Source: a virus
Lineage: Duplodnaviria; Heunggongvirae; Uroviricota; Caudoviricetes
Virus record (IMG/VR): IMGVR_UViG_2531839665_000020
Span: 1 to 26,759 of that record
Length of the DNA: 26,759 bases
Direction: 5' to 3' (one strand)
A program made the position numbers and the translations under genes. Numbering within the stretch: position 1 is the first letter of the stretch; each line of letters starts with the position of its first letter. Below, one piece after another: positions 1-16,210 of the stretch. The notes under the pieces were generated by a model. The model ran no database searches. It saw only the letters and a list, made by a program, of their open reading frames with translations, and was not told the DNA's origin.

Positions 1-381
1 ATGCAGAAAAATGTGACTCCCGGCAGGCGAAAAGGCTGCCCTAATTATCCTCCCGAATTTAAACAGCAGCTCGTTGCTGCCTCCTGTGAACCCGGGATAT
101 CCATCTCAAAACTTGCTCTTGAAAATGGCATTAACGCCAATCTGTTGTTCAAATGGCGACAACAATGGCGCGAGGGAAAGCTGCTATTACCTTCTTCAGA
201 GAGCCCCCAGCTACTTCCTGTGACTCTCGATGCAGCTGCCGAACAGCCAGAATCGCTCGCAGAGGACCCGGAAACCCTCAGTATCAGCTGTGAGGTAACG
301 TTCCGGCACGGGACGCTCCGCTTCAATGGCAATGTCAGCGAAAAGCTCCTGACTCTGCTGATACAGGAACTGAAGCGATGA
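1..381 (+). CDS. IS66-family accessory protein orfA (TnpA-like)
   Basis: 126-aa ORF starting at base 1; N-terminal helix-turn-helix-like region (KQQLVAASCEPGISISKLALENGINANLLFKWRQQW) typical of IS66 orfA; stop overlaps the orfB start (ATGA at 378-381). Confidence 0.85.
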   Translation: MQKNVTPGRRKGCPNYPPEFKQQLVAASCEPGISISKLALENGINANLLFKWRQQWREGKLLLPSSESPQLLPVTLDAAAEQPESLAEDPETLSISCEVTFRHGTLRFNGNVSEKLLTLLIQELKR

Positions 382-725
382 TCCCGTTACCTTCCGGGAC
401 CAAAATTTGGCTGGTTGCCGGTATCACCGATATGAGAAATGGCTTCAACGGCCTGGCTGCGAAAGTACAGACGGCGCTGAAAGACGATCCCATGTCCGGC
501 CATGTTTTCATTTTCCGGGGCCGCAGCGGCAGTCAGGTTAAACTGCTGTGGTCCACCGGTGACGGGCTGTGCCTCCTGACCAAACGGCTGGAGCGTGGGC
601 GCTTCGCCTGGCCGTCAGCCCGTGATGGCAAAGTGTTCCTTACGCAGGCGCAGCTGGCGATGCTGCTGGAAGGTATCGACTGGCGACAGCCTAAGCGGCT
701 GCTGACCTCCCTGACCATGCTGTAA
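378..725 (+). CDS. IS66-family orfB (TnpB)
   Basis: 115-aa ORF with IS66 TnpB signature ([22 protein letters not shown] ... FIFRGRSG); translationally coupled to orfA. Confidence 0.9.
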
Positions 726-774
726 ATCTCTTTATCCTGGTTGTCACAGAATAAGCCCGGTAAAATACGGGCTT

Positions 775-2313: not shown

Positions 2314-2396
2314 CACATCCCCGTCAATACGGCCCTCGCTGTACGCTTACGGTATTTCTGACTCATGGCCGTTTTTATAATGCGGCCAGGTGTTTT

Positions 2397-2747
2397 TTAC
2401 AACATTGTCAGGGCGTTAAGGCGGGATGTTTTTGGCTGACGCCAGTCCAGCTTATCGAGGAGCATTGCCAGTTGCGAGCGGGTAATGGATACCTTACCGT
2501 CACGCACCGCAGGCCAGATAAACTGGCCTTCCTCCAGGCGTTTGGTGAACAGGCACAGACCATCAGCATCAGCCCAAAGAATTTTAACGGTGTCCCCCCG
2601 TCGGCCACGGAAGATAAACAGGTGACCGGAGAAGGGATTATCATTCAGCACATGTTGTACCTGTTCTCCCAGTCCGTTGAAGGATTTACACATATCGGTA
2701 ACGCCGGCAACGAGCCAGATACGGGTACCTGATGGGAGTGAAATCAT
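2397..2747 (-). CDS. IS66-family orfB (TnpB), second copy
   Basis: 116 aa, MISLPSGTRIWLVAGVTDMCKSFNGL..., clearly paralogous to the 378..725 product but diverged. Confidence 0.85.
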   Translation of the reverse strand: MISLPSGTRIWLVAGVTDMCKSFNGLGEQVQHVLNDNPFSGHLFIFRGRRGDTVKILWADADGLCLFTKRLEEGQFIWPAVRDGKVSITRSQLAMLLDKLDWRQPKTSRLNALTML

Positions 2748-3169
2748 CTTCCCCTCCCGCTCAGTTCGCGGATTAACATCGTGAGCAGCTCTGGCGATGG
2801 ATTTTCCAGCGTCATGTTACCGTGACGGAATTCCACCTTGCAGGAACTGGCACTGACTCTGGTCTGAGTGGAAGTGGATAAAGACGGCGCAATGGCCGCC
2901 ACAGGTTCTTTCTGCTCATCCGGCGTTATTTCTACAGGTAATAATTCAACGCCAGTGTCAGAAGAGGTTGTTACCGGAAGACGCCGCGAAACATGCCCTT
3001 CGTTCTGCCAGAGCCTGAGCCATTTGAAAATAACATTATCATTGACGCCATTTTCTCGTGCAATCTGTGTAACACAAGCTCCAGGTTGTGATGCCAGTTC
3101 AACCATACGAAGTTTGAATTCATTCGAATACTTTTTACGAGGTTCTTTTCGCCAGTCCTGTAATTCCAT
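2744..3169 (-). CDS. IS66-family orfA, second copy
   Basis: 141 aa with the same HTH-like motif (EFKLRMVELASQPGACVTQIARENGVNDNVIFKWLRLW); ATGA-type overlap with downstream orfB. Confidence 0.8.
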   Translation of the reverse strand: MELQDWRKEPRKKYSNEFKLRMVELASQPGACVTQIARENGVNDNVIFKWLRLWQNEGHVSRRLPVTTSSDTGVELLPVEITPDEQKEPVAAIAPSLSTSTQTRVSASSCKVEFRHGNMTLENPSPELLTMLIRELSGRGR

Positions 3170-3296
3170 ACTTAGATGTCCGTCTGTGTCAGATGGGCGT
3201 CTAAGTTACCAATTCTTGTCTAATGGCTACATACGGCGGTCGGTTTACGCTTACTCTAATTCGTCAGATTCTGACCAGACGGTTCAGGCTGTACGC

Positions 3297-3431
3297 TTAC
3301 GATTCTTTAGGCAGATAATAATTTTGATCAGCCCATTCAACTGCCGTCATTGGTACAACCCTGACCAGAGGCTGCAGCGCAACCGAAACGGCAGCCATCA
3401 TATTATTCAGTTGTTGCTCTGATATATTCAT
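3297..3431 (-). pseudogene. Terminase large subunit (gpA-like), N-terminal ~44 codons only, truncated by IS66 insertion
   Basis: Translation MNISEQQLNN...PMTAVEWADQNYYLPKES matches the lambda gpA N-terminus pattern (MNIS...TAVEWADANYYLPKES); the reading frame runs into the IS66 terminus at 3300 and stops at 3297; start overlaps the 3' end of the Nu1-like gene. Confidence 0.7.
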
Positions 3432-3912
3432 CGAGTAAATCCGGTAATTTATCCCCTGCCCGCGCACACTGATTTGCCCCCTTAGCAATAAGGGTTTTCA
3501 GATGGTCAAGATGGCGCGGTGTTAAATCAGGAAACTGTCGCTGCATGGATAAAGGGATGGAATCAAGCGTACTGGATAACGCCATTGCCAGCTTACTGAG
3601 GGCAAAAATACAGAACCCGGTGTCAATAAGTTTTCCTTTTGACACCTCATTTTTTAACTGCTGTGTAACAGCCTGTTCTGCTGTCAGTTCCCATCTGGCA
3701 ATAAGCAATTTCTCCTCATAGTCGTCTTCGCTATCGCCATCAGGCACATCGTTTTTACTTCTCCTCAGATACGATATGTAAAAATCGCGCCAGGCATCCA
3801 GATCCAGTTGCCCTCGCTTATTCGATATCGGGGCACCCGGCAATTTCTGCAATCTGCGAAGCTGGCGATCGGTCAGACTTAAATGCCTGGCAACTTCAGT
3901 CTGCGTAGCCAC
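3403..3912 (-). CDS. Terminase small subunit, Nu1-like
   Basis: 169 aa; C-terminal region (TGFCIFALSKLAMALSSTLDSIPLSMQRQFPDLTPRHLDHLK...LLDEYI) resembles Nu1/NohA; GTG start preceded by GAGGTGAGGA; cos site immediately upstream. Confidence 0.8.
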   Translation of the reverse strand: MATQTEVARHLSLTDRQLRRLQKLPGAPISNKRGQLDLDAWRDFYISYLRRSKNDVPDGDSEDDYEEKLLIARWELTAEQAVTQQLKNEVSKGKLIDTGFCIFALSKLAMALSSTLDSIPLSMQRQFPDLTPRHLDHLKTLIAKGANQCARAGDKLPDLLDEYIRATTE

Positions 3913-3954
3913 TCCTCACCTCGCAAAAACTCTCACCTCACAATCACAACAAAA

Positions 3955-4120
3955 CCGGTCATGTCCGGTTTACATGTCCGTTTTTTGCACATGTCCGGTT
4001 CACGGACAGCCTGTTTTTATATTTTTCATATAGTTAACTTGCAGAGAAACCGGACATGGATCCCGGAAAATTTTCATAAATAGCGAAAACCCGCGAGGTC
4101 GCCGCCCCGTAACCTGTCGG
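3955..4120 (-). other. cos site: cosN cohesive-end sequence (4096..4107) plus cosB-like repeated terminase-binding motifs (3955..4060)
   Basis: Reverse complement of 4052-4120 reads CCGACAGGTTACG/GGGCGGCGACCT/CGCGGGTTTTCGCTATTTATGAAAATTTTCCGG, matching the phage lambda right-end/left-end junction as I recall it; three direct CATGTCCG(G) repeats (3960, 3973, 3990) and one inverted copy (4050) lie between cosN and the Nu1-like gene. Confidence 0.85.
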
Positions 4121-4144
4121 ATCGCCGGAAAGGACCCGCAAAAA

Positions 4145-4159
4145 TGATAATAATTATCA
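4145..4159. promoter_or_regulatory. Perfect 7-1-7 palindrome TGATAATAATTATCA (Fur-box-like hexamer content)
   Basis: Inverted repeat read directly from sequence, about 150 bp upstream of the 4308 ORF and 40 bp from cosN. Confidence 0.3.
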
Positions 4160-4307
4160 TCTACATGTCACAACGTGCATCTACGCCATCAAACCACGTC
4201 AAATAATTAATTATGACGCAGGTATCGTATTAATTGATCTGCATCAACTTAACGTAAAAACAACTTCAGACAATACAAATCAGCGACACTGAATACGGGG
4301 CAACCTC

Positions 4308-4532
4308 ATGTCAACGAAGAACAGAACCCGCAGAAAAACAACCCGCAACATCCGCTTTCCTAACCAAATGATTGAACAAATTAACATCGCTCTTGATCAG
4401 AAAGGTTCAGGTAATTTTTCAGCGTGGGTTATTGAAGCCTGCAGAAGAAGATTAATTAATGAAAAACATGCTCAATTTGTACCCAACAAAGACAAACACG
4501 ACCAGAGCACCTGTTCAGACAGGTTTACTTAA
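4308..4532 (+). CDS. Small basic hypothetical protein (possible DNA-binding)
   Basis: 74-aa ORF, Arg/Lys-rich N-terminus (MSTKNRTRRKTTRNIRFPNQ); transcribed opposite to the late operon; no family recognised with confidence. Confidence 0.5.
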   Translation: MSTKNRTRRKTTRNIRFPNQMIEQINIALDQKGSGNFSAWVIEACRRRLINEKHAQFVPNKDKHDQSTCSDRFT

Positions 4533-4613
4533 ACGACTTATATATGACACAAAAAGCGACCACTAAAGTCGCTTTTTCTTATGGTAACAGGCAATAACGC
4601 TCTCAGATATTTT

Positions 4614-4928
4614 TTAGCATTTTTTTGACCGCGCGTTTCCGGACGTATTCTGTTCTCCTGTCCCTTTATATCGTCGGAATACCCGCCGCTCTTCAAATCC
4701 CATTCCCAACTCAGAATGTAGTCTGTTGACCGCTTGTTTTATTTCGGTCAGGTTCACCGGTGAAACCGGAGTCCGGCGCGCCTTACGCAAACACTCTGCT
4801 CGTTTCTGTGCCGCCACTTTTCTTTTCTGGTCATCACTTAGCTGTACCATCACTTTTGCCCATCGTTCAGCTGCTCTCCGGTACAGTCCTTTTTTCTCCA
4901 GACATTCTGCCACGTGATCATGTAGCAT
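4614..4928 (-). CDS. PerC-family transcriptional regulator (Pch-like)
   Basis: 104 aa; motif LEKKGLYRRAAERWAKVM matches the PerC/Pch signature; ATG preceded by GGAGG; long A-tract-rich region upstream. Confidence 0.7.
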   Translation of the reverse strand: MLHDHVAECLEKKGLYRRAAERWAKVMVQLSDDQKRKVAAQKRAECLRKARRTPVSPVNLTEIKQAVNRLHSELGMGFEERRVFRRYKGTGEQNTSGNARSKKC

Positions 4929-5100
4929 AAGTGACCTCCGATTATCTACAGACTGCCATCCTGAATTTACCTTCCCTTAATGAAATAACAATAAAAAACA
5001 AACCACGCAAAAACAATAAAATAACACACAAAAAAAACTAAATAATAAACAAAAATAATCACCTTATTTTATTATTTTTTGAGGGGGCAATTACTGAACA
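4929..5100 (-). promoter_or_regulatory. AT-rich, A-tract-rich upstream region of the PerC-like gene (probable promoter / curved DNA)
   Basis: Dense A-tracts (e.g. 4980-5090) directly upstream of the gene; compositionally unlike flanking DNA. Confidence 0.4.
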
Positions 5101-5393
5101 AAAAACGCTGACTATATACTCAAAACCAAACAACTATTCTGCCAATCAGGTATCATGGCAACACACGGAATTACCGTGTTTTTGCCTTCTCTGCCCATAC
5201 AATACGGGCATATACTTCATACTCTATTGTAATATTTCTATCCATGCGCCCCACTCCATTTACCTGTAAATAATATTCAAAATATTTATCACAGAAATCG
5301 TTTTTGTCCATGAACTGAGCACACTATAAAGTCCGGAACTGACTCTTTGTTAAATTACCTTAACGTTACCAGTAACACCTTCATAACAAAACA

Positions 5394-5861
5394 TCACGGT
5401 ATACACTGGGTACGGATATATTCCTGTGCTCCTTCCAGTTGCTTCTGCATTGCCATCAGCCGTTCTCTGAGGATGAAATAATCCCGTTCAGCGGCTTCTG
5501 CCAGTCGGGGACCGGTTGCATTATCCACGCCGGAGGTGATGGGGGCTTTACGCAAGGAGCCTGGACAGTTGGCGTTGATGCGCAGGCGCTTACGACCAGC
5601 GGCAACATCAGCACGCAGAGTTTCATTTTCAGCTCTCGCATCGGCTAATTCCCTCGAGTATCTGGCATCAAGTGCAGCGACATCACGCTGGCGTACCTGC
5701 ATATCAGTAATTGTCACGTTCGCCAGCTTCAGCTCACTGGCTTTTTTATCGCGTTGCGCTTTGTAGGTAATGGCGTTATCGCGGTAATGATTCAGCCCCA
5801 GACTAAGCACACCACAGGCTACCAGCAGGACAATAATCACCACACACAGAACACGGTTCAT
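5394..5861 (-). CDS. Rz: Spanin inner-membrane subunit Rz
   Basis: 155 aa; N-terminal TM segment followed by [25 protein letters not shown]...[10 protein letters not shown], a close match to lambdoid Rz. Confidence 0.9.
5456..5641 (-). CDS. Rz1: Spanin outer-membrane lipoprotein Rz1 (embedded in Rz, +1 frame)
   Basis: 61-aa ORF nested in Rz; lipoprotein signal (LPLVVSAC) then Pro-rich stretch ([16 protein letters not shown]) typical of Rz1; exact start (M1 vs M6) uncertain. Confidence 0.75.
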
Positions 5862-6012
5862 ATCCCCCTCACCCCACCAGCCATGACAAAGTTAAGACGC
5901 GCCAGGCAGTGGAAAAGCAAATAGCAACCAGCATTAGTGAAAATGAAATGCCGACGATTACACAGAGGATCTTCGCCAGCGTTATGAGCTTGTCTGACAT
6001 GCTTAATCCTCT

Positions 6013-6195
6013 TCACGATTTCAACGCAATGACCAGTTTTGCCAGCCCATACAGCATCGGAGACACAGCAATACCGACCGCCACCCACTTAATAGCAAAA
6101 GCCAGCGCTCTGCTGACGTCATCAGTTACAGGCGCTTTCAGTTCAAGGCCGTTTTTCATAGTCAATCTCAACAGAATTCGTTTATACTTTCCCAT
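6013..6195 (-). CDS. Small membrane protein (60 aa), unassigned, between R and Rz
   Basis: ATG at 6195 preceded by GGGAGAA; Lys-rich N-terminus and one C-terminal hydrophobic helix (IKWVAVGIAVSPMLYGLAKLVIAL); the longer ORF-track version (6013..6273) would read through the terminator hairpin, so the internal start is preferred. Confidence 0.4.
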   Translation of the reverse strand: MGKYKRILLRLTMKNGLELKAPVTDDVSRALAFAIKWVAVGIAVSPMLYGLAKLVIALKS

Positions 6196-6227
6196 GTTCT
6201 CCCTTGCCTTACTCAAGGTCAGAAACA

Positions 6228-6267
6228 CAAAACCCCGTTTGCGGCCAACAAACGGGGTTTTACTTTT
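6228..6267. terminator. Bidirectional rho-independent terminator
   Basis: Perfect 9-bp stem CCCCGTTTG / CAAACGGGG (6233-6241, 6249-6257) with 7-nt loop, A-run upstream and T-run downstream, so U-tract on either strand. Confidence 0.6.
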
Positions 6268-6350
6268 ATTCACTTAGTTTTTGCCAGTTCGCAGGATTTC
6301 GTGTTATCCGCCCGCGTTGGCCAACGTCATTTTTCAGCAAAATATTCTGC

Positions 6351-6884
6351 TTATCTGTCAATTCCCCAGCACGCCAGTGCACTTTCCTGGTCTCGCCGGG
6401 ATACCTGACCGTAGCAATTATTTGAGCGGATACGGCAGTCTCTGCCACCGTCCTTAATCCACCAGCGAATCGCTTCGCAGGCACCTTTTCGATCACCTGC
6501 ATTAATCCGTCTGTAAAACGTAGACGGGAAACACTTACCGGGGCCAATGTTATAAGGACAAAATGACGCGATACCCGCCTTCTGGGGTTCGGTCAGCGGT
6601 ACTTTAATATTGCGCTCCACCCACTCCAGCGCCTTATCACGTTCAATGGCGTTAACCTGGTCGCACTTTTCCTTCGATAACTTCATACCCGGGACGACAG
6701 GCTTACCATCCACTCGGGTGGCACCGCGGCAGATGGTCCAGATCCCCGCACCATCACGGTATGCCGTGGTGTGGTTACCTTCTTTTTCGTCAAGAAACTG
6801 GTCGAGGATTTCAGGCGCAGACGTCCCTGCACCAATCAGCGCCAGAACGGCAGCCGACAGGCCGTATCTGATTTTTGCGTTCAT
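6351..6884 (-). CDS. R: Endolysin R, SAR-type lysozyme (T4-lysozyme-like fold)
   Basis: 177 aa; N-terminal signal-anchor-release-like segment (YGLSAAVLALIGAGTSAP) and catalytic E/D/T region (EGNHTTAYRDGAGIWTI) as in phage 21 R. Confidence 0.9.
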   Translation of the reverse strand: MNAKIRYGLSAAVLALIGAGTSAPEILDQFLDEKEGNHTTAYRDGAGIWTICRGATRVDGKPVVPGMKLSKEKCDQVNAIERDKALEWVERNIKVPLTEPQKAGIASFCPYNIGPGKCFPSTFYRRINAGDRKGACEAIRWWIKDGGRDCRIRSNNCYGQVSRRDQESALACWGIDR

Positions 6885-7009
6885 GGATATTTATCAGGAT
6901 TTATCGGTTCCGGACCCCTGGATATGTTAAGTCTTCAGCCCGCCGGTGGTGGGCACTGGCGTAAACCCAACAATGTGAGATGGCTGCCTCGCAAAGATAA
7001 TGAACAGAT

Positions 7010-7273
7010 ATGAATGAAGAAAATACAGCGCTTTTTGACAGAATTTTCACTCTTGAGTTACAGGTCGGTTTTCTTCTCCCAAAGATAATCAAAGCCATGG
7101 ATGCACTTGGTAAGAATAACGCTGTGTCAGATTACCTGATCGCCGAAATGGAACATCTCATTAAAGAAATACCAAAGACCGATGCTCGTGATGATAAAAG
7201 ATTCCTCAGGGCTGCTGAAAATGCTCTTTCAACAGTGAAGCGCAGTTCAGGCGCGCAGCTAATTCAAGAATAG
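7010..7273 (+). CDS. Hypothetical protein (87 aa), convergent with the 7206..7736 gene
   Basis: AT-rich ORF with protein-like helical composition; weak SD; 3' end overlaps the opposite-strand gene by 68 bp. Confidence 0.45.
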   Translation: MNEENTALFDRIFTLELQVGFLLPKIIKAMDALGKNNAVSDYLIAEMEHLIKEIPKTDARDDKRFLRAAENALSTVKRSSGAQLIQE

Positions 7274-7736
7274 TTTCTTTCATTTCATCTGCTGCAAGCA
7301 CCTCATTTTTTGTTGGGGTGCTTTTTTTCAATTCAGTAACACAGCACTCCAGTTTTTCAATACGTGATTCAACATCATCTTTTTCTGACCGCAGTGTTGA
7401 CGGCGGCATCTTCAGAGAACAAGTAATTCTTCCCGGTAGCTTTCCTTTGTAGGTTATCAACACATCCTGCGCCTCTAAAATTACGGGGCGATTTTCCGGC
7501 AACGGACCATCCCCTTCACATAACCCGGCAGCAACATCCATGAAAAACTGCTTCGCCTGCTTTTTCGCCTCAGCTTCGTAAAACTCCAGCGTGGCACCTT
7601 CAGTACGGTCAAGACTAATCGCCACATCTGGCAACAACAGTGACGGATACCCACCAATTTCCAGTGCCACAGTAACAGTAATCTTATCCGGGTAATTATT
7701 TATCCCTTTAACAACCAGTTCGTATTTTTTCTTCAT
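7206..7736 (-). CDS. Hypothetical protein (176 aa) inserted between holin and endolysin
   Basis: ATG 5 bp downstream of the holin stop with GGAGAG SD (translationally coupled to S); lower-GC codon usage than flanking lysis genes; no domain recognised. Confidence 0.65.
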   Translation of the reverse strand: MKKKYELVVKGINNYPDKITVTVALEIGGYPSLLLPDVAISLDRTEGATLEFYEAEAKKQAKQFFMDVAAGLCEGDGPLPENRPVILEAQDVLITYKGKLPGRITCSLKMPPSTLRSEKDDVESRIEKLECCVTELKKSTPTKNEVLAADEMKETILELAARLNCASLLKEHFQQP

Positions 7737-7740
7737 CGCT

Positions 7741-7956
7741 TTACTCTCCCCGCGCCGCCTTACGACGGTCCTCTCTGATTTTGAAATACAGGTTAGTCAG
7801 ATATGTCAGCAGCCCAAACAGCAGACTCCCCAGCACGCCTATTGCCGCCCACTGAGACGGAGAGACTTTGTCCAGCAGCTGCAGGAACCAGTAGCCCGTT
7901 CCCACCGCTGACGTGGTGTATGACACACCTGTTGTGATTTTTTCCATCTGGTACAT
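7741..7956 (-). CDS. S: Class II holin / pinholin S (phage 21 S-like) with dual-start motif
   Basis: 71 aa [71 protein letters not shown], very close to S21; Met1/Met4 dual start. Confidence 0.9.
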
Positions 7957-8031
7957 ACCCCGTCTCTCGCAATCCGGAAGCTCACAACAACAGGAGGGGC
8001 ATCAGCTCACACCGACAGCCCCTGCGCATGG

Positions 8032-8301
8032 TTACATCATCATTTCGCCGTCAGGCTGAGGCTCACTGCTACCGTCAGGCTGAGACACGACGCCATCTGA
8101 AACAGCACTGTCACCCGCGCCGTCTTCAGGCTCAGGAGCAGCCGGTCCCCCCAGCAGCTCATCCAGAATGGCATCCACTTCAGCATCAAGACGCGCCTCA
8201 AGATTCTGGCGGAGTTGCTGTTTCAGTGCGCTTCTGACTTCTTCAGAGCGCAGGACGTCCTTCACTGCTTCAGCAGTGACCAGAGATTTTATTTCTGACA
8301 T
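8032..8301 (-). CDS. Acidic hypothetical protein (89 aa)
   Basis: Internal ATG at 8301 chosen because the longer ORF (to 8457) overlaps the upstream 60-aa gene; product MSEIKSLVTAEAVKD... with Asp/Glu/Pro-rich tail. Confidence 0.55.
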   Translation of the reverse strand: MSEIKSLVTAEAVKDVLRSEEVRSALKQQLRQNLEARLDAEVDAILDELLGGPAAPEPEDGAGDSAVSDGVVSQPDGSSEPQPDGEMMM

Positions 8302-8338
8302 GGGATTTTCTCGTTGAAAGGTGTTGTTAAGAAAGTTG

Positions 8339-8521
8339 CTACGAAATGAGAGGCTCTTCGGGTTTTGTTCCGGCTGACTGGCTGGCGCTGATTTTTTCCG
8401 CCGCCGCGGCATCAATCTTTTTGCGTATATAGTTCCGGATAACCTTATACCCGCCACTTACCAGATATAACGTGCACACCACCGTGCAGAAATACAATAA
8501 AATAAGCTGTACAAATCTCAT
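8339..8521 (-). CDS. Small membrane protein (60 aa)
   Basis: ATG preceded by GGGAGGG; single TM helix (LILLYFCTVVCTLYLVSGGY) followed by a basic tail. Confidence 0.5.
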   Translation of the reverse strand: MRFVQLILLYFCTVVCTLYLVSGGYKVIRNYIRKKIDAAAAEKISASQSAGTKPEEPLIS

Positions 8522-8668
8522 TATCCCTCCCGGTTATTGATATGGTGTTGACATCGTTAATACCTGTTGGTTAAAAAAGTGTCCTGCATGTTTTGCTTTG
8601 GATATAACGACATTTGCCGCCGGTTCTGGCTCCTTGTTTTCCCTGCCCCGGCGGCCTTTTTTTCCTGC

Positions 8669-10606
8669 TTACGGGTTATTCACTTCCACTGTTATACTTT
8701 CAATCAGCACCGGATATGTCGCACCGCTAGTGATATCGGTCACGCGCAATTTGTCTGCCGTAAACGTGCCGACCGGTGACTGTGACAGCATGAACGGCGT
8801 CCCGTCCTTACCATCAATGACCGGCGTCACCTCAATACTGTTGTTACCGGCAAAACGGAAGCCCAGCGTATGCCATTCGTTATCAAATGCGCCGAATGAC
8901 CCCAGCTTCGTGTTCTGACCAGCATTTCCCTTGTGGTACATCACATTAAGGTCTGTGGCATCGCTCTGTACGTAAAACGACGCCAGCAGGTTATGAGCGG
9001 CATTACCTTCCAGTGTGACGCCCTGAGGCAGTGAAGAAACCGGCCAGTACAGCGCCAGTGCGTACTGATTAGCTGTCAGTGTGCCATCAACTTTAAAACG
9101 ACAACTGATAAGCCCGCCCTTCTCCAGCAGGTCTGCGCCATTACCGGCATCATGCTGCATAAACCACGAGGAACTTCCTGTCTGTTTGGTCCACCTCAGC
9201 GCCTTACCTCCTGCAGCACCTGCATCATCAACTACCAATGCACGCCCTCCTTCAGCTCCCCATCCCTGCGGATTCAGTAAACCACCTGACTCTGTTGCAC
9301 GGTAATAAAGCAGCGTTGTCACTGATTTCCCGTCCGTTGACGGTGTTGATGGTGTGTCCGGTGACGGCTTCTCATCCGGCGGCATCACAACCTGTTCCCC
9401 ACCCACCAGTTCAGCCGTCCGTCCTGCATGGAGAAGAATCGCTGAGGCAAGACGGTCAGAAATAATCCCCCTGCGTGCCCATGAGCTGAAATGGCTCGCA
9501 CGGTCTGCTGACGTCCAGTTTGCCGACGTCCGGGAGGCCGCACCGTAATATCCTGATGCCGGAATATCCGGGTCTTCTTCCGGTTTGTTCGTCGGGACAT
9601 TTGCTCCGTTCTCATCGGTCATGAACGGCACAAAGTGAATATTCTTTTCCGTTTTGTTTTTGTAACTGCCGTACACCGTCTGGTAAGTGGATTCGCTCTT
9701 CTGCTTCCAGAAATAAGTTGTGTCTCCACATATCCAGGGAACACCGTCAGCAGAACCACCAGCGCACTGTCCCACCATATCTGCAAGGTCCGTACGATAT
9801 TGTTCCACTACTTCTGTAAAACGGGCTGTGTGATTTGCTGGCGTTCCGTCAAAGTCAAATTCCCCCTGCATCCACACCACGGCAAGCAGCACATTTTTCG
9901 GGTTCTTTGCCAGCGCGGCTTTTGTACGACCGATGAGATCCTTATACAGCGGCCTGCCCACACCCCAGCGGGTAGAACTCTCTGAGGCACCGGTCACGTC
10001 ACTGTATGTTCCATCTGCCCCGGTGGTGAAAGCTGAACCACCACGGCAGCACGGAACCAGAAGAATACCCGCATTCGCCGGTATAAACGGCAGCAGCTTT
10101 TTGGCAATATGCAGCCCCTGCCCCACGGTTCCGTACTGACCTTTCGACAGGTCAGCTTTCGGATGGTTAAGACGGCTCATGTCCTGTACATCATGCAGAC
10201 AGTGGTCTGCCGGAATAATGTCGTTATATTTACAGGGAGCGCCATCCGGCGTCACTGTGCTGCGACGAGCCAGTTGCTTTATACGCGGGTCAGGACGGTC
10301 ATATGTCTGCGGCAGAGGAAGCCCCTCACCGTAAGCCATGCCGTTCGACTGCCCGGCCAGTGGAATAACGTAGTAATAATCTGGCTCCGTGGTGACCACT
10401 CCCGGATAGCCACCATCCCCCGTGCCGGGCACAACCACTGGCGTGGTCACATCCCCCTCCGCGGCAATCGCCTGCATCAGGGTATAAGGGGTTATGGCCA
10501 CCGGACTACCAAACGGCTGCCAGCCCTCTTTCAGTTTGTGTGTCAGCTTTTCCGCAAGATCTGACGGCGACGCCGCCCTGACAACATCATAATGTTTAAT
10601 CGACAT
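8669..10606 (-). CDS. nanS-p: Prophage sialate O-acetylesterase NanS-p type (DUF1737 N-terminus + SGNH esterase + C-terminal lectin-like domain)
   Basis: 645 aa; GQSN esterase motif (VIPLAGQSNGMAYGEG); length and architecture match the NanS-p proteins found downstream of stx in EHEC prophages; ATG preceded by GGGAG. Confidence 0.9.
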   Translation of the reverse strand: MSIKHYDVVRAASPSDLAEKLTHKLKEGWQPFGSPVAITPYTLMQAIAAEGDVTTPVVVPGTGDGGYPGVVTTEPDYYYVIPLAGQSNGMAYGEGLPLPQTYDRPDPRIKQLARRSTVTPDGAPCKYNDIIPADHCLHDVQDMSRLNHPKADLSKGQYGTVGQGLHIAKKLLPFIPANAGILLVPCCRGGSAFTTGADGTYSDVTGASESSTRWGVGRPLYKDLIGRTKAALAKNPKNVLLAVVWMQGEFDFDGTPANHTARFTEVVEQYRTDLADMVGQCAGGSADGVPWICGDTTYFWKQKSESTYQTVYGSYKNKTEKNIHFVPFMTDENGANVPTNKPEEDPDIPASGYYGAASRTSANWTSADRASHFSSWARRGIISDRLASAILLHAGRTAELVGGEQVVMPPDEKPSPDTPSTPSTDGKSVTTLLYYRATESGGLLNPQGWGAEGGRALVVDDAGAAGGKALRWTKQTGSSSWFMQHDAGNGADLLEKGGLISCRFKVDGTLTANQYALALYWPVSSLPQGVTLEGNAAHNLLASFYVQSDATDLNVMYHKGNAGQNTKLGSFGAFDNEWHTLGFRFAGNNSIEVTPVIDGKDGTPFMLSQSPVGTFTADKLRVTDITSGATYPVLIESITVEVNNP

Positions 10607-10949
10607 CGAATTTCTCCCGTGTACAGGAACAGAGTTAAAAAGCCGGAACCGGAATCAAATCACAGGATGACCATCTGCCAGTGGCTGGTCGTAAAAAAAA
10701 GGCCGCGCCATGCGCAGCCGGAAATAAAGGGATAACGATGATAGTTTGAGAAAAACAGAAATAACACTTTTGTGGCAAAGCATGGTGCCGGGTGCCTCCC
10801 GGTGAATTCAGTACCAGCACCTGAATCCGCGATTATCCCATATACCTAGTTGCTGATTGCCCCTCCGCACAGGGGGATTCACCATGCAGTAGTATTTTTA
10901 ATAAACAGTAAACAAAAAAATCAAGCATTATGCAGGCTGTTTCTTTTTA

Positions 10950-11087
10950 TCACCGGCCACAGCAATACCACAATGCCGCAGACCAGCCCCCATCCGCCAG
11001 CACCGACATGATTCTGCTGGTGAAATCCACCATCACCACCAGAAACAGCAGGAGTGCAGCCACAGCCAGGCGCAGTTTTACCGTCAC
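10950..11087 (-). CDS. Small hydrophobic ORF (45 aa, GTG start), speculative
   Basis: GTG overlapping the TerB-like stop (GTGA) with GGAG 10 nt upstream; product MTVKLRLAVAALLLFLVVMVDFTSRIMSVLADGGWSAALWYCCGR has one TM helix; not in the ORF track because it is under 60 aa. Confidence 0.25.
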   Translation of the reverse strand: MTVKLRLAVAALLLFLVVMVDFTSRIMSVLADGGWSAALWYCCGR

Positions 11088-11480
11088 AGGTGATTCTCCA
11101 GACGAAGCCCCAGAACACCGGCAATCTCTTCCAGCACCTTGCGCTCTTCCGGCTCAATTTCGCCGTCTGCCTCCGCAATGGCCACCGCCACATCCAGCAC
11201 ATCTTCCGCTTCACGCGTATCGCGTTTCACATCCTCGATCTCACGTAACGCCGCACGACGACCAATTTTAAAGTTCGTATCCAGCTGACCGATAATGGTT
11301 GCGCTAATCGCATTAATTTCTGACGTAAACGCGGACAGCGCTGGCTGATTACGCAGTACCTGTTCGATCTTCGCTTTCTAGGAAGCCTCACATTCACCAT
11401 TTGCACAGGCCACCAGGTATGCGGCGTTAATCACCGCCTGTGCCAGATCGCGTTTCTCAAACTTTCCTTTTTCCGGTTAA
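11084..11480 (-). pseudogene. TerB-like (tellurite-resistance TerB domain) gene remnant, disrupted
   Basis: Manual - strand translation gives ...KGKFEKRDLAQAVINAAYLVACANGECEAS(amber)KAKIEQVL...AVAIAEADGEIEPEERKVLEEIAGVLGLRLENHL with two TerB-like ADGE-type repeats; in-frame TAG at 11378-11380, upstream TAA, no usable start. Confidence 0.45.
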
Positions 11481-11579
11481 CGTGACACACCAATAACTCT
11501 TGTCGAAAAAGCCAGCAAGCTGAAAGACCGGTATTCACAACCACCAGCGCGTTTACTGTACTGGCGTGATTTCAGTCAT

Positions 11580-11606
11580 AAAAAAACCCGCCTGGCGACG
11601 GGTGTA
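11580..11606 (-). terminator. tR'-like rho-independent terminator downstream of PR'
   Basis: On the - strand: GC-rich imperfect hairpin (CACCCGTCGCCAGGCGGG) followed by TTTTTTT; about 60 nt downstream of the predicted late promoter. Confidence 0.7.
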
Positions 11607-11644
11607 AAAAATCTTCTAACGTCAGGCATAAAACGCCCATCGTT

Positions 11645-11680
11645 AGGGCAAATTTACCACAGATTCGGGAAAAATCAACA
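11645..11680 (-). promoter_or_regulatory. Late promoter PR' (with presumed qut site) immediately downstream of Q
   Basis: - strand TTGATT (11673-11678), 16-nt spacer, TAAATT (11651-11656); position relative to Q and tR' matches lambdoid late-control architecture. Confidence 0.5.
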
Positions 11681-11683
11681 AAG

Positions 11684-12505
11684 CTATCTGGTCACCTTTT
11701 TCAGTTGTTGTTCTGCCCATGCTTCTTCAATATCAAACTGCACCACCAGCGTATCGTAAAAACGTTTAACTGTTTTTTTCCATGTATCAAGAGATATGGC
11801 ATCGGTTACATTACATATGGCATTAAATGCCTCCGTTGAAGGTAATCTTTCATAGCCACGACCACCACAACGCTGGCAGTCTCTGATAACAGGCATACCA
11901 CGTTTTACCGACTCTTCACGATGAATGGCAACACCGCGCCCACGACAATCTTTACAGGCGGTGGAAACCTCCCCCTTCCCTCCACACTCCGGACAGGCAA
12001 CTTTTACCACCTCCCTGACTTTTTTCCATTCCTCCCAGTAAGACGGATACACGCCTTTTGTGCACTTTGCCCACACTGGCGGCTTACCATCCGGATACTG
12101 GATCTTGTTTGTAAAAACCTCGCTTTCAATAAATTTTTTTCCGTGACAACAGGGGCACTGTTTTTTGCTCGCCGCGCTACGGGCATAATCTTCAAACGCA
12201 TACGAAGCCATAATACGCATCACTGCCGGTTTTATTTCTGCCGGGAGTTTTCTTAACGCCGCCACGCGATCACACCGACTGAGTGCATATTCTGTCAGCA
12301 ATTCTGTTGCCCGCTCTCTGTCATTCATACTAATGCCCATTTTCCCAAGGAACGCAGAAAACCCCATCTCAGCCCAATTCTGTGTCATGCCCTGCGCGGC
12401 CATCACATCAGTGATACTCAGCGTATCTTTCGACGTTGAGGCCGATGCATCAGTCAGGCCGGGGGATTTTGGGGAGTAGTATTTCGGTAAATCTTCCAGT
12501 TTCAT
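11684..12505 (-). CDS. Q: Late antiterminator Q (phage 82/21-type, zinc-binding)
   Basis: 273 aa with four CxxC motifs (CPCCHGKK, CPECGGKG, CKDCRGRG, CQRCGGRG) and overall similarity to 82-type Q; ATGA overlap with rusA stop. Confidence 0.85.
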   Translation of the reverse strand: MKLEDLPKYYSPKSPGLTDASASTSKDTLSITDVMAAQGMTQNWAEMGFSAFLGKMGISMNDRERATELLTEYALSRCDRVAALRKLPAEIKPAVMRIMASYAFEDYARSAASKKQCPCCHGKKFIESEVFTNKIQYPDGKPPVWAKCTKGVYPSYWEEWKKVREVVKVACPECGGKGEVSTACKDCRGRGVAIHREESVKRGMPVIRDCQRCGGRGYERLPSTEAFNAICNVTDAISLDTWKKTVKRFYDTLVVQFDIEEAWAEQQLKKVTR

Positions 12506-12876
12506 TTTTTGACCTGCCCTTCAAGCATTATGGGGTAAATCTTCACCCCCAGACGTCCACCAGATACTGGCTGAGCACGAACGATATTGATTTCATCAAA
12601 CTGCTCATCGTCCATTAGCAACCCCGCATGCGTCAGCGCATCCAGCGGCGCTTTCAGAATATTGTCCAGGTCACGGCGGCGCTTATCCGGTGGCTCGGCA
12701 ATAATCTTTATCGCCAGCCTTCCGGACAGGCTTAATTTCAGCCGCTGCTGGCGAACAATAAGCGCCACAGCCCGGCGATAACGCTCACCGGCTTTTGATA
12801 CAAAATATGTGCTGCCACGACGTCGCCAGTAGGTGTTCACCGTCGGCAGGTAAAGCAAAACAAACTCTATACGCAT
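12502..12876 (-). CDS. rusA: Holliday junction resolvase RusA
   Basis: 124 aa; MRIEFVLLYLPTVNTYWRRRG... and PPDKRRRDLDNILKAPLDALTHAGLLMDDEQ match RusA catalytic region; ATG preceded by AGAGG. Confidence 0.9.
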   Translation of the reverse strand: MRIEFVLLYLPTVNTYWRRRGSTYFVSKAGERYRRAVALIVRQQRLKLSLSGRLAIKIIAEPPDKRRRDLDNILKAPLDALTHAGLLMDDEQFDEINIVRAQPVSGGRLGVKIYPIMLEGQVKK

Positions 12877-12888
12877 CAGTAACCTCTT

Positions 12889-13938
12889 TTACCCGAGCAC
12901 GCCGGTTGCAAAGGCGTGATCAAGAAAACGAAAAATTAAATCAACCTGGGAACCATGCTTTTCTTCGAACGCCAGCGGATCCGCATGAAGCTCGTTGTGA
13001 TGCTCCCGACACAGCGGTAGCGTGAAAATATCGTGGGATTTTGTTCCCATTCCGCCCTGACCATGACCAATCAGATGATGAGGATCGTCCGCTGGCTTAC
13101 CACAACACGCACACGGCTGTGTCTTTACCCAGCGTGTGTATTTCTCATTTACCCAGCGGCGACGTTTAGGTCGTTTCATGAAGGATTCCGGAGACTCCGG
13201 ATCAACGGCAATGCTGACCACCGTCTTTTCCTGTGGTGGGTTCTGTTGCTGGTGGGTGTGAGGCGGTAGCGCAATATTTTTTGTGCGCTGCTTCAGTATG
13301 CTGGTGGCGGTCTGCTCTCCCGGTACGATGTCGCTTTCGCGGTACAAGGAGCGGATTTTTTCCACACGTAACCCCAGAGAACGACGTAATACGGCCTCCG
13401 GTAGCGCGTCCGCCACCTGATTGCAGACCGCCCACCAGGATAATTCAGCCAGAGATAATTCACGCTCCTGCGTACCGCTTATTGCGTGACCGATGACGTC
13501 AATCATCCATGCTGACAGGTTTTGATGAGCAAGTTGCTCGAGTGATTCGGATGTCTGGTCCCGTAGCTGGTTGTCGCAGTGCCAGCACAACACCATTGCG
13601 CCAGTACCATAACGGTGAATGACAGTTTCGCTGTGGTGATAATCGCCGTGTGGCCACTGGCAGGATTTAATATGGCGCAACAGCCAGTCAGACAATGCAC
13701 CAGCACCACCAGCAGCACGAATCACTCGTTCGTCGCTGAAAAATGGCAGCAATGTTTTGTCTTCCACCAGCGGCTGGCGAACGGCAGGAACGACCCCGGA
13801 CGGCAGATTACGCATGCTTTTTGGTTCCGGCTCCACCAGCACTCGAGGGTTATGAAATACCTGCATGGATTCACGGCCCGGCTTAAGGACCACCAGCCCA
13901 AGTTCCGGTACCGGAACAGGTCGAAGTAATACCCGCAC
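12889..13938 (-). CDS. DUF968-type nin-region protein with C-terminal HNH-like zinc motif (YdfU-like)
   Basis: 349 aa; C-terminal CACCGKPADDPHHLIGHGQGG...CREHHNELH; GTG start with GGAGG SD; sits between RusA and hok as ydfU does in Qin. Confidence 0.8.
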   Translation of the reverse strand: MRVLLRPVPVPELGLVVLKPGRESMQVFHNPRVLVEPEPKSMRNLPSGVVPAVRQPLVEDKTLLPFFSDERVIRAAGGAGALSDWLLRHIKSCQWPHGDYHHSETVIHRYGTGAMVLCWHCDNQLRDQTSESLEQLAHQNLSAWMIDVIGHAISGTQERELSLAELSWWAVCNQVADALPEAVLRRSLGLRVEKIRSLYRESDIVPGEQTATSILKQRTKNIALPPHTHQQQNPPQEKTVVSIAVDPESPESFMKRPKRRRWVNEKYTRWVKTQPCACCGKPADDPHHLIGHGQGGMGTKSHDIFTLPLCREHHNELHADPLAFEEKHGSQVDLIFRFLDHAFATGVLG

Positions 13939-13939
13939 G

Positions 13940-14218
13940 TTACCTCCAGATGCGTTGCTGGAATGTGCGGGACGGACGCGGTGGGCGTTCGGAATAAGGG
14001 AGCCTGACGTAGATTATCCAGTGACGATAATAGAGGCTGAGGGCTTTCCTAAACTCATACCCACGCCTGCGGTAGTTCTGAATCAGCCATTCGGCCTGTT
14101 CTTCAGTGCATGGGTCATGCTGGTACCAGTCATATTTGAATGCATGAGAACGCCGCCCGTGCCTGCTGGCAAAGACGGCTGAATTATCAGAATTGTGTGG
14201 TCTGGAATTTTGCGCCAT
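13940..14218 (-). CDS. Hypothetical nin-region protein (92 aa)
   Basis: ATG with GGAG SD; stop abuts the SD of the downstream DUF968 gene; no family recognised. Confidence 0.6.
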   Translation of the reverse strand: MAQNSRPHNSDNSAVFASRHGRRSHAFKYDWYQHDPCTEEQAEWLIQNYRRRGYEFRKALSLYYRHWIIYVRLPYSERPPRPSRTFQQRIWR

Positions 14219-14284
14219 CGGTTTTCTCCGGTGGCACAGTGTTACTCAACAGGGGTTCAGCCCTGTGCTGAATTGTAGATGAAT

Positions 14285-14548
14285 TTACTCATCTTCAAAA
14301 GCAGAAAAACCAGCCTTAAGCCCAGCTTCTTTCAGAGACTGCAATGATGTGACAAATTCATTTTCACGCAAAATAAAACCATCTGTCACAAGTTCATCCA
14401 CAAAATGAATTAACGCAGCTCCACTCTTCCTTTGTTGAGACTGTAAACATTTAATACGGCAGTGGCTGACAATAGCGCCATTCTCAACGCGCACAGTATA
14501 GAGGCCATCTTCACTAAAAATTTCACGTAATTCTTCGATTTTCATCAA
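14285..14548 (-). CDS. Hypothetical protein (87 aa)
   Basis: AT-rich ORF MMKIEELREIFSEDGLYTVRVENG...; occupies the position of rem in the Qin prophage, but the sequence is not recognised. Confidence 0.55.
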   Translation of the reverse strand: MMKIEELREIFSEDGLYTVRVENGAIVSHCRIKCLQSQQRKSGAALIHFVDELVTDGFILRENEFVTSLQSLKEAGLKAGFSAFEDE

Positions 14549-14662
14549 CAGAATCCTTCCAGATAAATAGCACTCCCCTGTTCGGGGTCCATCCCTCTTC
14601 TCCCTGCGCGCTACTTAAGTATTTTTGATTCTATTCCGGCGCCGTCCGGAACTTCAAACGCG

Positions 14663-14696
14663 TTGAAAATAAAAACAAAAACCCGCCGAAGCGGGT
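14663..14696 (-). terminator. Rho-independent terminator at the 3' end of the hok transcript
   Basis: - strand hairpin ACCCGC-TTCG-GCGGGT followed by a T-rich tract; lies about 70 nt downstream of the hok stop. Confidence 0.6.
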
Positions 14697-14765
14697 TAAG
14701 TGCGGGTGCGTTGAGGATGCCTGACACATCAGAGGTGGCGAGGGATTTCTCCCCCGCCTGGTCTC

Positions 14766-14921
14766 TTACTCCTCAGGTTCGTAAGCTGTGAAGACAGCGA
14801 CCTCCGTCTGGCCGGTTCGGATTCGTACCTCGCAGAGGTCTTTCCTCGTTACCAGTGCCGTCACTATGACGGTTAAACAGATGACGATCAGGGCGATTAA
14901 CATCGCCTTTTGCTGCTTCAT
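14766..14921 (-). CDS. hok: Hok/Gef-family type I toxin (51 aa)
   Basis: MKQQKAMLIALIVICLTVIVTALVTRKDLCEVRIRTGQTEVAVFTAYEPEE matches the Hok family; ATG preceded by AAGGAGAAG; an in-frame upstream ATG at 14978 gives a 70-codon mok-like extension. Confidence 0.85.
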   Translation of the reverse strand: MKQQKAMLIALIVICLTVIVTALVTRKDLCEVRIRTGQTEVAVFTAYEPEE

Positions 14922-14924
14922 AGC

Positions 14925-15010
14925 CTGCTTCTCCTTGACCTTTCGGTCCGTAAGAGGCAATCTATATGTGACGAGCATATAGGGGCCTCACTTCGATTTA
15001 TAGTCGGGTG
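14925..15010 (+). ncRNA. Predicted Sok-like antisense RNA region (approximate)
   Basis: Placed by analogy with plasmid R1 hok/sok: leader elements GCTTGAGGCTATCTGCCTC and GATTGCCTCTTACGG resemble the R1 hok leader as I recall it; exact RNA ends not determinable by eye. Confidence 0.3.
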
Positions 15011-15112
15011 GGGCTTTTATCTATCTGCCGTTGGTGTTCATGCCCGAGGCAGATAGCCTCAAGCACCCGCAGCAATTCTACTTAACTCTGCCGTTACAGC
15101 AAGCCGTTTTCG

Positions 15113-15138
15113 TCCGATATGGGAATTCCCATATCGGA
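15113..15138. repeat. Perfect 26-bp palindrome TCCGATATGGGAATTCCCATATCGGA
   Basis: Read directly from sequence; lies between the hok leader and the terminator of the ModA-like gene. Confidence 0.9.
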
Positions 15139-15221
15139 ATGAATTCAGTTCACCTGGCGAGGCTTAGCGTACAATTTTTTCCGTTTTGTGAGCTGCCCCT
15201 ACATGCCGCTGGCGCGGCATC

Positions 15222-15253
15222 CGGAAAAAGAATCCACGTCCTGAAGGACGTGG
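15222..15253 (-). terminator. Rho-independent terminator of the ModA-like gene
   Basis: - strand hairpin CCACGTCC-TTCA-GGACGTGG 7 bp after the stop codon, followed by ATTCTTTTT. Confidence 0.65.
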
Positions 15254-15259
15254 AGGATG

Positions 15260-16018
15260 TCAAGTGCCTTTCCTGGTCCAGCCATATTTTTTGAATGCAG
15301 GCGCCGCTTCATCGGTTTGTAGCCATTCTGCAAATCGACGGGTTTCATCATTTGCATCCTGACGTACTGTAATGTTCATATCACGCCATATCACGTAGTC
15401 TGGCGCTATTTCCACGACATCACCAATTTCTGGATTACTGGCTGCCCAGTCAGCCCAGGTTATCCAGACATCTGCTTCAGGCTGATTCTCAAGAGCCTTA
15501 CGTGCAGTTCCGCTATTGGGCGCATATAAAATAATATTTTTTCGGATTGCGGCGACAGTTTCTATATTCCCTTTACGTCCGGCAATATCTTCCCAGACGC
15601 CAGTGCCTGATGTATTACTGGTACCACCACCATCATTAACAATTACGCCAATCCCGGGTCTGGTCAGGTCGTCAATACTCCGGATATTTTTAGGATTACC
15701 TTTCTTTACCAGTAAAATACTTTTTCGCAGATAAAGAGGCTGAATATCTTTTTCACTGAAGCTGTCTTTATGGTCCCGAATGATAGCCAGAGCAGATTGT
15801 TCTGATGCGCCAAACAAGATATCTGCATTTTTTTTGGCATCTTCATTCCATTTGTTCTGTGGGCCGTAATGAACGTTCACTATAATACCTGTTTTTTCGG
15901 CATAAAGTTTGGCTGCATCAAGCAAGGCTGTATGCGGGCCACCAGGACCATACAGATTGATATCAGCATAAGCAGCAGAAGACAGGAATATTAAAAAACC
16001 TGCCATTATGTTCCTCAT
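15260..16018 (-). CDS. Orphan periplasmic substrate-binding protein, ModA/TupA-like
   Basis: 252 aa; signal peptide (MAGFLIFLSSAAYA); ADILFGASEQSA and C-terminal AAPAFKKYGWTRK resemble E. coli ModA (ADLFISADQKW; AAEIFKRYGFTIK); no permease or ATPase gene adjacent. Confidence 0.8.
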   Translation of the reverse strand: MRNIMAGFLIFLSSAAYADINLYGPGGPHTALLDAAKLYAEKTGIIVNVHYGPQNKWNEDAKKNADILFGASEQSALAIIRDHKDSFSEKDIQPLYLRKSILLVKKGNPKNIRSIDDLTRPGIGVIVNDGGGTSNTSGTGVWEDIAGRKGNIETVAAIRKNIILYAPNSGTARKALENQPEADVWITWADWAASNPEIGDVVEIAPDYVIWRDMNITVRQDANDETRRFAEWLQTDEAAPAFKKYGWTRKGT

Positions 16019-16182
16019 AAAAAACTCCTTTTATTGGTTATCATGAAATAAAGTTATAAACACTACAAATAATATATATTACATCCAGATAAACTTATCC
16101 GACTTTACCTCGTGCATAGCTTGTTATTTAAAGTTAACAAAATAAGGAAAATTATACGCATATTGAAGAGTATAAACCTTAC

Positions 16183-16210
16183 ATGTTGATTACATTTTTG
16201 TAATCAACAT
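16183..16210. promoter_or_regulatory. 12-bp perfect inverted repeat ATGTTGATTACA-tttt-TGTAATCAACAT, candidate operator upstream of the ModA-like gene
   Basis: Read directly; about 165 bp upstream of the ModA-like start in an AT-rich intergenic region. Confidence 0.4.

Follow-up and report, generated by a model that had tools for sequence, protein, structure and literature searches.

Known hok/sok systems

The hok/sok locus (parB) of plasmids R1 and R100 is plasmid-borne and has a proven role in post-segregational killing. The R1 hok mRNA is 398 nt long. Translation of the R1 leader reading frame mok matters as far as the hok start, but the Mok product itself does not (PMC9841398).

The closest studied relative of the locus described here is hokW-sokW, which is carried by Sakai prophage 5 (Sp5), a Stx2 phage of E. 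coli O157:H7 (PMC8621323). Its toxin is toxic, and sokW expressed from its own promoter neutralises it with partial dependence on RNase III and Hfq. After mitomycin C treatment sokW is lost and HokW is produced in a RecA-dependent manner, and the system gives a two-fold gain in Sp5 phage release (PMC8621323).

E. coli K-12 carries hokC/mokC/sokC (gef) and, in the Qin prophage, hokD (relF). The gef gene has reportedly been described with an in-frame orf69; a literature search for 'orf69 gef' returned nothing relevant. A survey of the Hok family (10.1101/2025.08.07.668861) catalogued 44,248 homologues, which are enriched in prophages, and left Mok out as too hard to call. HokD is among the previously characterised toxic control sequences in that preprint.

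The prophage encodes a complete hok/sok module

The window (the whole 26,759-nt stretch of DNA analysed here, IMG/VR record IMGVR_UViG_2531839665_000020) encodes a complete but ordinary hok/sok type I module; the lambda-like prophage that carries it is defective and comes from a Shiga-toxin-type E. coli. The locus is very probably a complete member of the hok/sok (Hok/Gef) family that belongs to the hokD/hokW subgroup and resides in a defective Qin-like lambdoid prophage, and we propose that it follows the R1 paradigm. The kind of locus is already known. Judged against the regulatory elements of that paradigm as given in PMC9841398, it is intact at the sequence level, every sequence and RNA-structure element being present and predicted to fold as needed. 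We infer its transcription, processing, Sok expression, toxicity and biological role.

The full layout, read from the sequence and the list of open reading frames, occupies 15102-14672 on the minus strand. The hok toxin gene (14766-14921, minus strand) encodes a 51-aa protein, MKQQKAMLIALIVICLTVIVTALVTRKDLCEVRIRTGQTEVAVFTAYEPEE, that matches the Pfam family HOK_GEF; on the 70-aa ORF this match scores 81.6 bits against a cutoff of 22 and covers the full profile (1-42). The hok Shine-Dalgarno (SD) sequence AAGGAG (14931-14936, minus strand) is closed in a hairpin with CUCUU (mRNA nt 113-117) in the minimum free energy (MFE) folds and falls in invariant columns of a seven-locus alignment.

A mok-like leader ORF (14766-14978, minus strand) spans 70 codons in frame with hok, as the original prediction had stated, and shares its stop codon. 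Its ATG at 14978 precedes the hok ATG (14921) by 57 nt, or 19 codons, and the frame stays open past the hok start to the common stop. It has its own SD, GUGAGG (mRNA nt 78-83; 14986-14991, minus strand), 7 nt before the mok ATG, which aligns with the R1 mok SD GAGG (element defined in PMC9841398).

A putative hok/mok promoter (15075-15102, minus strand) consists of a -35 box TTGCTG (15102-15097), a 16-nt spacer and a -10 box TAGAAT (15080-15075), followed after 6 nt by the +1 at G15068. The -35 box is weak, with three of the six consensus positions. Phage relatives conserve the -10/+1 region, which in alignment coincides with the 5′ end of the R100 hok mRNA. A consensus promoter scan of the window called neither the hok nor the sok promoter, and both were placed by homology.

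The predicted full-length hok mRNA measures 397 nt (14672-15068, minus strand), its 5′ end being set by the R100 alignment and the start of the Rfam match and its 3′ end by the terminator. The leader extends for about 147 nt after +1, and an 80-nt 3′ UTR stands ahead of the terminator hairpin. The terminator scan placed an intrinsic terminator at 14672-14697 (minus strand), with the stem AACCCGC-UUCG-GCGGGUU and a subsequent U-run.

The leader matches the Rfam family RF01794 'sok' at 14919-15068 (minus strand) over model positions 1-157 of 157, with 103.9 bits against a gathering score of 59 (E = 7e-23). The match is on the strand of the hok mRNA, so the model describes the target leader of Sok and not the antisense strand. 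This 'sok antitoxin' match ends at the hok AUG, and its strand marks the toxin leader, which makes it a trap for automated annotation.

The original prediction of an apparently intact hok/sok-type type I locus thus holds by every sequence-level criterion that could be tested, including the Rfam and Pfam matches and the folds described below. The matches and folds exceed chance by a wide margin. The hok frame, SD, leader motifs and 3′ terminator (hairpin and T-run, 14697-14672) that it listed are all present. The interval it gave, 14663-15070, brackets the locus but leaves out the hok promoter. An alignment of the leader with R1-type and chromosomal hok loci, which it had suggested as a check, was made with seven loci: no variation occurs in the hok SD or the hairpin that closes it, and the mok SD and the -10/+1 region align with those of R1/R100.

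The Hok protein of the window is identical to K-12 HokD, and RefSeq lists HokD as WP_000813254.1 in both the matching Shiga-toxin-producing E. coli (STEC) strain and a K-12-type genome. The RefSeq annotation consists of the 51-aa hokD coding sequence only, leaving mok, Sok and the RNA elements unlabelled.

The motif TACGAA at the hok Tyr47 codon UAC (window 14780-14786, minus strand, UUACGAA) is invariant in 7/7 aligned loci, including R100, and is unpaired in the MFE fold. A-to-I editing by TadA converts a tyrosine to a cysteine in hokB, and a similar change is described for cysteine 46 in the hokC, hokD and hokE mRNAs (10.1101/2025.08.07.668861). The Tyr47 motif may be the editing site of that preprint, the residue numbering there being off by one.

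The predicted folds of the hok mRNA follow the R1 model

The 397-nt hok mRNA has an MFE of -166.3 kcal/mol against a shuffle mean of -121 (z = -7.7), and 0/100 shuffled sequences folded as well. These folds are models of an RNA whose 5′, 3′ and processed ends are taken from R1.

Four regulatory elements were located. The translational activator tac (mRNA nt 1-12; 15057-15068, minus strand) has the sequence GGGUGCUUGAGG, and the ucb or anti-SD box (nt 52-61; 15008-15017, minus strand), placed from the predicted folds, has the sequence AAGCCCCACC. The fold-back inhibition element fbi (nt 353-365; 14704-14716, minus strand), CCUCAACGCACCC, is the complement of tac with one bulged C. A 3′ stem-loop in the MFE fold (nt 292-349; 14720-14777, minus strand) is predicted to protect the 3′ end of the mRNA once it has been processed into its translatable form, a role suggested by the R1 model (PMC9841398).

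In both the MFE and centroid structures of the full-length RNA, tac (nt 1-12) is paired with fbi (nt 353-365). The ucb nucleotides 55-61 pair with the mok SD region (nt 78-84), and the hok SD is closed. When the RNA is trimmed at the 3′ end (nt 1-350/352), tac nt 1-8 re-pairs with ucb nt 52-59 and the mok SD is loosened. In a nascent 45-nt RNA, tac lies inside a local 5′ hairpin. The 398-nt R100 mRNA, folded by the same procedure as a control, gave the same pairing of its 5′ and 3′ ends. The folds of the window hok mRNA are therefore predicted to reproduce the R1 model in end pairing, sequestration of the mok ribosome binding site and refolding after 3′ trimming.

The duplex of the 12-nt tac with fbi has an energy of -21.1 kcal/mol, against about -13.8 for shuffled tac (z about -3.5); a 13-nt tac gives -21.5. 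Across the relatives, the tac complement is found about 48-50 nt past the hok stop. Photorhabdus and Pantoea show compensatory changes in the two elements (U4-A to C4-G and G12-C to A12-U). Wherever tac changes, fbi changes too, and a genuine long-range helix is expected to show such coupled covariation. The fuzzy motif used to find mRNA 5′ ends gave false starts at K-12 hokD, some hokC loci and a few others (with tac sequences such as CCGGTCTTCAGG or GGCGTCTTCAGG), at which z was near 0; they were rejected. The counts of mok frames given below are independent of the entries from this motif.

A predicted Sok antisense gene overlaps the mok start

The opposite strand carries a Sok promoter (14935-14963, plus strand) of putative activity, with a -35 box TTGACC (14935-14940), a 17-nt spacer and a -10 box CAATCT (14958-14963). 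The -10 box is a poor match to the consensus, as it lacks the first T. Its position equals that of the hokW-sokW -10 box and of the K-12 sokC promoter (TTGACC-17-CACTCT). Mutation of the sokW -10 box with oligo YO-421 abolished antitoxin activity (PMC8621323). Our regex survey of Sok -10 boxes covered the TTGACC subclass.

The predicted Sok RNA is about 57 nt long (14970-15026, plus strand, putative ends). Its first 9 nt form a free 5′ tail that spans the mok start codon; a long hairpin follows, and the 3′ end is U-rich. The fold has an energy of -22.1 kcal/mol (z = -4.2). By position it is homologous to the annotated K-12 sokC, a 59-nt RNA that overlaps the first 9 nt of mokC. The K-12 sokC promoter has the same weak type of -10 box, and in vivo capture has recovered mokC/sokC double-stranded RNA from K-12 (PMC7373196). 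On this basis, Sok of the window locus is probably expressed.

Comparison with hokW-sokW and the K-12 loci

Three oligonucleotides from the hokW-sokW paper (PMC8621323) match the window exactly. For comparison, the hokW-sokW sequence was represented by Stx2 converting phage I (L006), taken as its carrier because four further oligonucleotides of that paper match it exactly. The two loci share one architecture and occupy similar positions in a lambdoid early region, and in both mok is in frame and 70 codons long. Identity is 86% over the mRNA, and the two Hok proteins have 47/51 residues in common. Little or no sequence difference is seen in the first 50 nt of the mRNA, the hok SD, most of hok, fbi and the flanks. 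By contrast, differences are concentrated in the Sok segment, where about 22 nt of the Sok hairpin region are absent from the window (14979-15010; columns 168-215 of alignment A1 with L006), and the context of the mok start, hence the 5′ tail of Sok, differs. The Sok -10 box is CAATCT in the window and TAACCT in hokW, and the C-terminus of Hok is TAYEPEE in the window and VDYESEK in hokW.

Since the Sok segments differ, cross-recognition between the window Sok and sokW would be unlikely. The matching STEC genome has six hok-like places. The divergence of the Sok segment may represent diversification that prevents cross-talk among co-resident Sok RNAs.

K-12 hokD encodes the identical 51-aa protein, and its hok SD, 3′ UTR, fbi and terminator are about 99% identical to those of the window. 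The downstream neighbours (rem-like ORF, DUF968, antiterminator) are also the same. However, K-12 hokD is without promoter, tac, ucb, mok and sok, whereas the window has the whole leader, with paa upstream. K-12 hokD has in common with the 531-nt query used in the genome search only positions 196-530. Homology begins about 14 nt upstream of the hok ATG, so the K-12 copy is 5′-truncated and the contrast with a decayed hokD/relF in Qin, as originally drawn, was correct. The K-12 gene is leaderless because relB and relE occupy the position of the leader: relE ends 72 nt upstream of hokD, and the order in the slot is relB-relE-hokD-rem.

The K-12 hokC/mokC/sokC locus (gef) resembles the window locus in its in-frame mok with a 57-nt offset, its short leader of the same length and its Sok promoter of one type (TTGACC, 17 nt, C-A-N-T-C-T). 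The Hok proteins are about 80% identical. In hokC an IS186 element lies about 20 nt downstream of the stop and displaces the 3′ fold-back region, which is intact in the window.

The R1/R100 locus has the same set of elements as the window locus and the same predicted folding pathway, including the metastable 5′ hairpin. Hok of R1 is about 44% identical (the figure given for HokW in PMC8621323). R1/R100 is a plasmid locus, whereas the window locus is borne by a prophage.

The mok reading frame is labile

The original prediction had set the in-frame mok of the window against an out-of-frame mok in R1. The R1 part of this statement is borne out by R100 (L005), where the 70-codon mok begins 58 nt ahead of hok in the other (+1) frame and its stop precedes that of hok by 4 nt, unlike the in-frame mok of the window. 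As a distinguishing feature, however, the in-frame layout fails, being the same in K-12, where mokC (16751-16960) and hokC (16751-16903) have a common stop and starts 57 nt apart.

We classified 114 distinct leader-bearing sequences drawn from 80 phage contigs and 53 genomic loci encoding Hok relatives, a sample skewed to close relatives whose counts are not population frequencies. An in-frame mok (57-nt offset) was found in 94/114, with carriers in Escherichia, Shigella, Pseudocitrobacter, Photorhabdus, Pantoea and Erwinia. The R1-like +1 frame (58-nt offset) occurred in 7/114. The remaining 13/114 have a 19-codon mok (56-nt offset) whose TGA overlaps the hok ATG as ATGA. Loci compared for these frame states were L005, L007, L010, L020, L096, L097, L100, L102, L109, L111 and L136-L138.

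The alignment traces the frame switches to single-base indels within the segment (window 14922-14978) that contains the Sok -10 box as well. One such indel puts mok out of frame (+1, 68 codons) in the locus of the Rac-type phage MN652886, which has both mok and hok annotated and is 88.6% identical to the window. Conversely, IncFII plasmid pMTY1886 (L004) encodes an R1-identical Hok with mok in frame; its locus and that of R100 differ by indels just past the mok ATG. This plasmid was considered as a counterexample to the R1 literature, a conflict resolved by the out-of-frame mok of R100. The R1-type loci were reached through a protein search and the classic R1 sequence, which matches R100 at 100%. 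A nucleotide search of plasmids with the window locus retrieved hokD-type copies only, on non-mobilizable plasmids of about 95 kb, and did not retrieve R1.

The indel-shifted loci of about 88% identity and the in-frame mok beside an R1-identical Hok indicate that the mok frame is labile, with the in-frame arrangement the common state in the family. With all three states present among the sequenced relatives, the frame of mok relative to hok does not define the family.

With mok in frame, translation initiated at mok should yield a 70-aa Hok with an N-terminal extension, like MokC of K-12. It is most improbable that this Mok-Hok fusion from ATG 14978 is the real toxin, with no translational coupling and a functionally distinct in-frame layout. 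The open 70-codon ORF with its own SD fits such a fusion, as do the prevalence of the in-frame layout in our sample and the annotation of MokC as a protein in K-12. Yet near-identical loci switch frame by single-base indels, as the Rac-type phage does, and others stop mok after 19 codons, so the extension is not preserved as a protein sequence. The invariant hok SD and closing hairpin are as expected if hok initiates separately, and mok stop codons placed beyond the hok start in R1 leave Hok production unaffected (PMC9841398). We favour separate initiation at hok, coupled to mok translation.

We also consider it highly doubtful, though conceivable, that the three mok layouts are not neutral and either set the output of Hok or yield a 70-aa Mok-Hok isoform with its own membrane targeting or potency. 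If they were so, single-base indels in the mok/Sok-promoter segment would tune prophage hok loci. Since the family-wide study skipped Mok, our incidental survey of its frames may be of use.

The host prophage is Qin-like and defective

Positions 7272-26759 of the window are 99.8% identical to a prophage located between rspB and ydfJ in STEC strain 2011C-4251, whereas the left 7 kb (1-7271) differs from that strain. Read along the hok strand, the gene order is integrase, exonuclease, dicB with DicF, the repressor region and replication genes, a fimbrial pseudogene, paa and hok. Past hok follow a rem-like ORF, DUF968, RusA, the Q antiterminator, a SASA-family esterase and the lysis cassette. The hok/sok locus thus lies between the replication genes and the Q antiterminator. 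No stx genes are present in the window, and a tRNA scan of it found no genes.

Directly upstream of hok, paa (15260-16018, minus strand) encodes a 252-aa AcfC-family adhesin with an SBP_bac_11 domain and has its own terminator (15254-15233). It is virulence-type cargo in the early region of the prophage, where the K-12 Qin counterpart is relBE. A frameshifted fimbrial gene stands just upstream of paa (about 16180-16710, coordinates converted from L001). Right past the hok terminator there is a sigma-70-like promoter (TTGAAG, 18 nt, TAGAAT; 14628-14657, minus strand), behind which lies the rem-like ORF (87 aa; 14285-14548, minus strand). This segment is conserved in K-12 Qin and in phage mEp460.

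The window contains two further small RNA matches. DicF (22012-22063, plus strand; Rfam, 77 bits) adjoins dicB, which confirms a Qin-like region of immunity and division inhibition. An STnc100 family match (10747-10913, minus strand; 102 bits) is flanked by the Q antiterminator region and the SASA-family esterase gene (8669-10606).

The lysis cassette is apparently complete, with a holin (7741-7956), DUF1327, a lysozyme (6351-6884) and Rz (5394-5861). Past the lysis genes, IS elements cut the prophage off. They include an IS66-family element with three ORFs (1-2313) and another transposase fragment (2744-3169), beside which is a fragment of the Nu1 terminase for packaging (3403-3912). With Nu1 reduced to a fragment next to IS elements, the host prophage is defective as well as Qin-like.

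Distribution and annotation

We searched 5426 complete E. coli genomes with the 531-nt query. Some match was found in 4722/5426 genomes, and 2327/5426 match at least 80% of the query, that is, including the leader. Identity to the query is at least 99% in 568 E. coli records. In phage records the gene is annotated as gef "phage maintenance protein", as MokW, or as mok and hok. Loci of the hokD type with about 81% identity also occur in E. coli, E. albertii and Klebsiella, on many non-mobilizable plasmids of about 95 kb (plasmid matches H28-H51). The size and lack of mobility of these plasmids suggest that they may be phage-plasmids.

Proposed mechanism and biological role

Following the R1 model, a weak constitutive promoter would produce a stable 397-nt hok mRNA whose 5′ end is held in a local hairpin while nascent. 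In the complete mRNA, tac would pair with fbi so that the mok ribosome binding site stays bound to ucb, excluding both ribosomes and Sok. Slow 3′ exonucleolytic trimming would then strip the terminator and fbi, allowing the 5′ end to re-pair with ucb and freeing the mok start region. Where the short-lived Sok is present, it would pair at the mok start region, and RNase III would destroy the duplex. Where Sok is absent, mok would be translated, the hairpin closing the hok SD would be opened, and Hok would be made. The resulting 51-aa inner-membrane peptide is expected to collapse the membrane potential.

An intact sequence is no guarantee of an active module, as chromosomal hokA, hokB and hokC have been reported inactive: according to the summary given in 10.1101/2025.08.07.668861, they show neither post-segregational killing nor activation by rifampicin. 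The window locus could likewise be an intact but silent hitch-hiker with little or no transcription, or under permanent repression, carried along on recombining modules of lambdoid prophages. We regard this as fairly unlikely. The failure of hokA, hokB and hokC to mediate killing in that summary speaks for silence, as do the weak consensus matches of the two promoters, both uncalled by the scan, the leaderless hokD tolerated by K-12 and the defective state of the host prophage. Against it, every regulatory element has been kept, including the long-range tac/fbi complementarity that mutation would erode fast, the locus is conserved at high identity in the 568 records noted above, and hokW-sokW, in its native prophage, is both expressed and functional (PMC8621323).

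For a functional locus, the most likely role, by analogy, is early membrane damage that aids lysis at prophage induction, stabilisation of the prophage, or both. Because the prophage is defective, a role in phage release as for hokW cannot apply in full, and the locus may act in maintenance or have no role. Post-segregational killing and phage exclusion, the roles named in the original prediction, are generic to the family and would be candidate roles here. It is quite unlikely that the main function of the module is to protect the host by abortive infection or phage exclusion, as is reported for R1 hok/sok against T4, instead of aiding prophage lysis or maintenance. Such a role is reported for the family in literature cited by PMC8621323 and 10.1101/2025.08.07.668861, and defence cargo is frequent in prophages. 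On the other hand, hok is not enriched near defence systems (10.1101/2025.08.07.668861), and the experiments on the prophage homologue hokW-sokW point to aiding the phage's own release (PMC8621323).

Many pathogenic E. coli prophages still carry the ancestral hokD-type module in complete form, of which K-12 retains only a remnant that lies behind relBE and has no leader. The window locus itself matters little beyond annotation, but in its strain it may plausibly contribute to the timing of lysis or to retention of the prophage.
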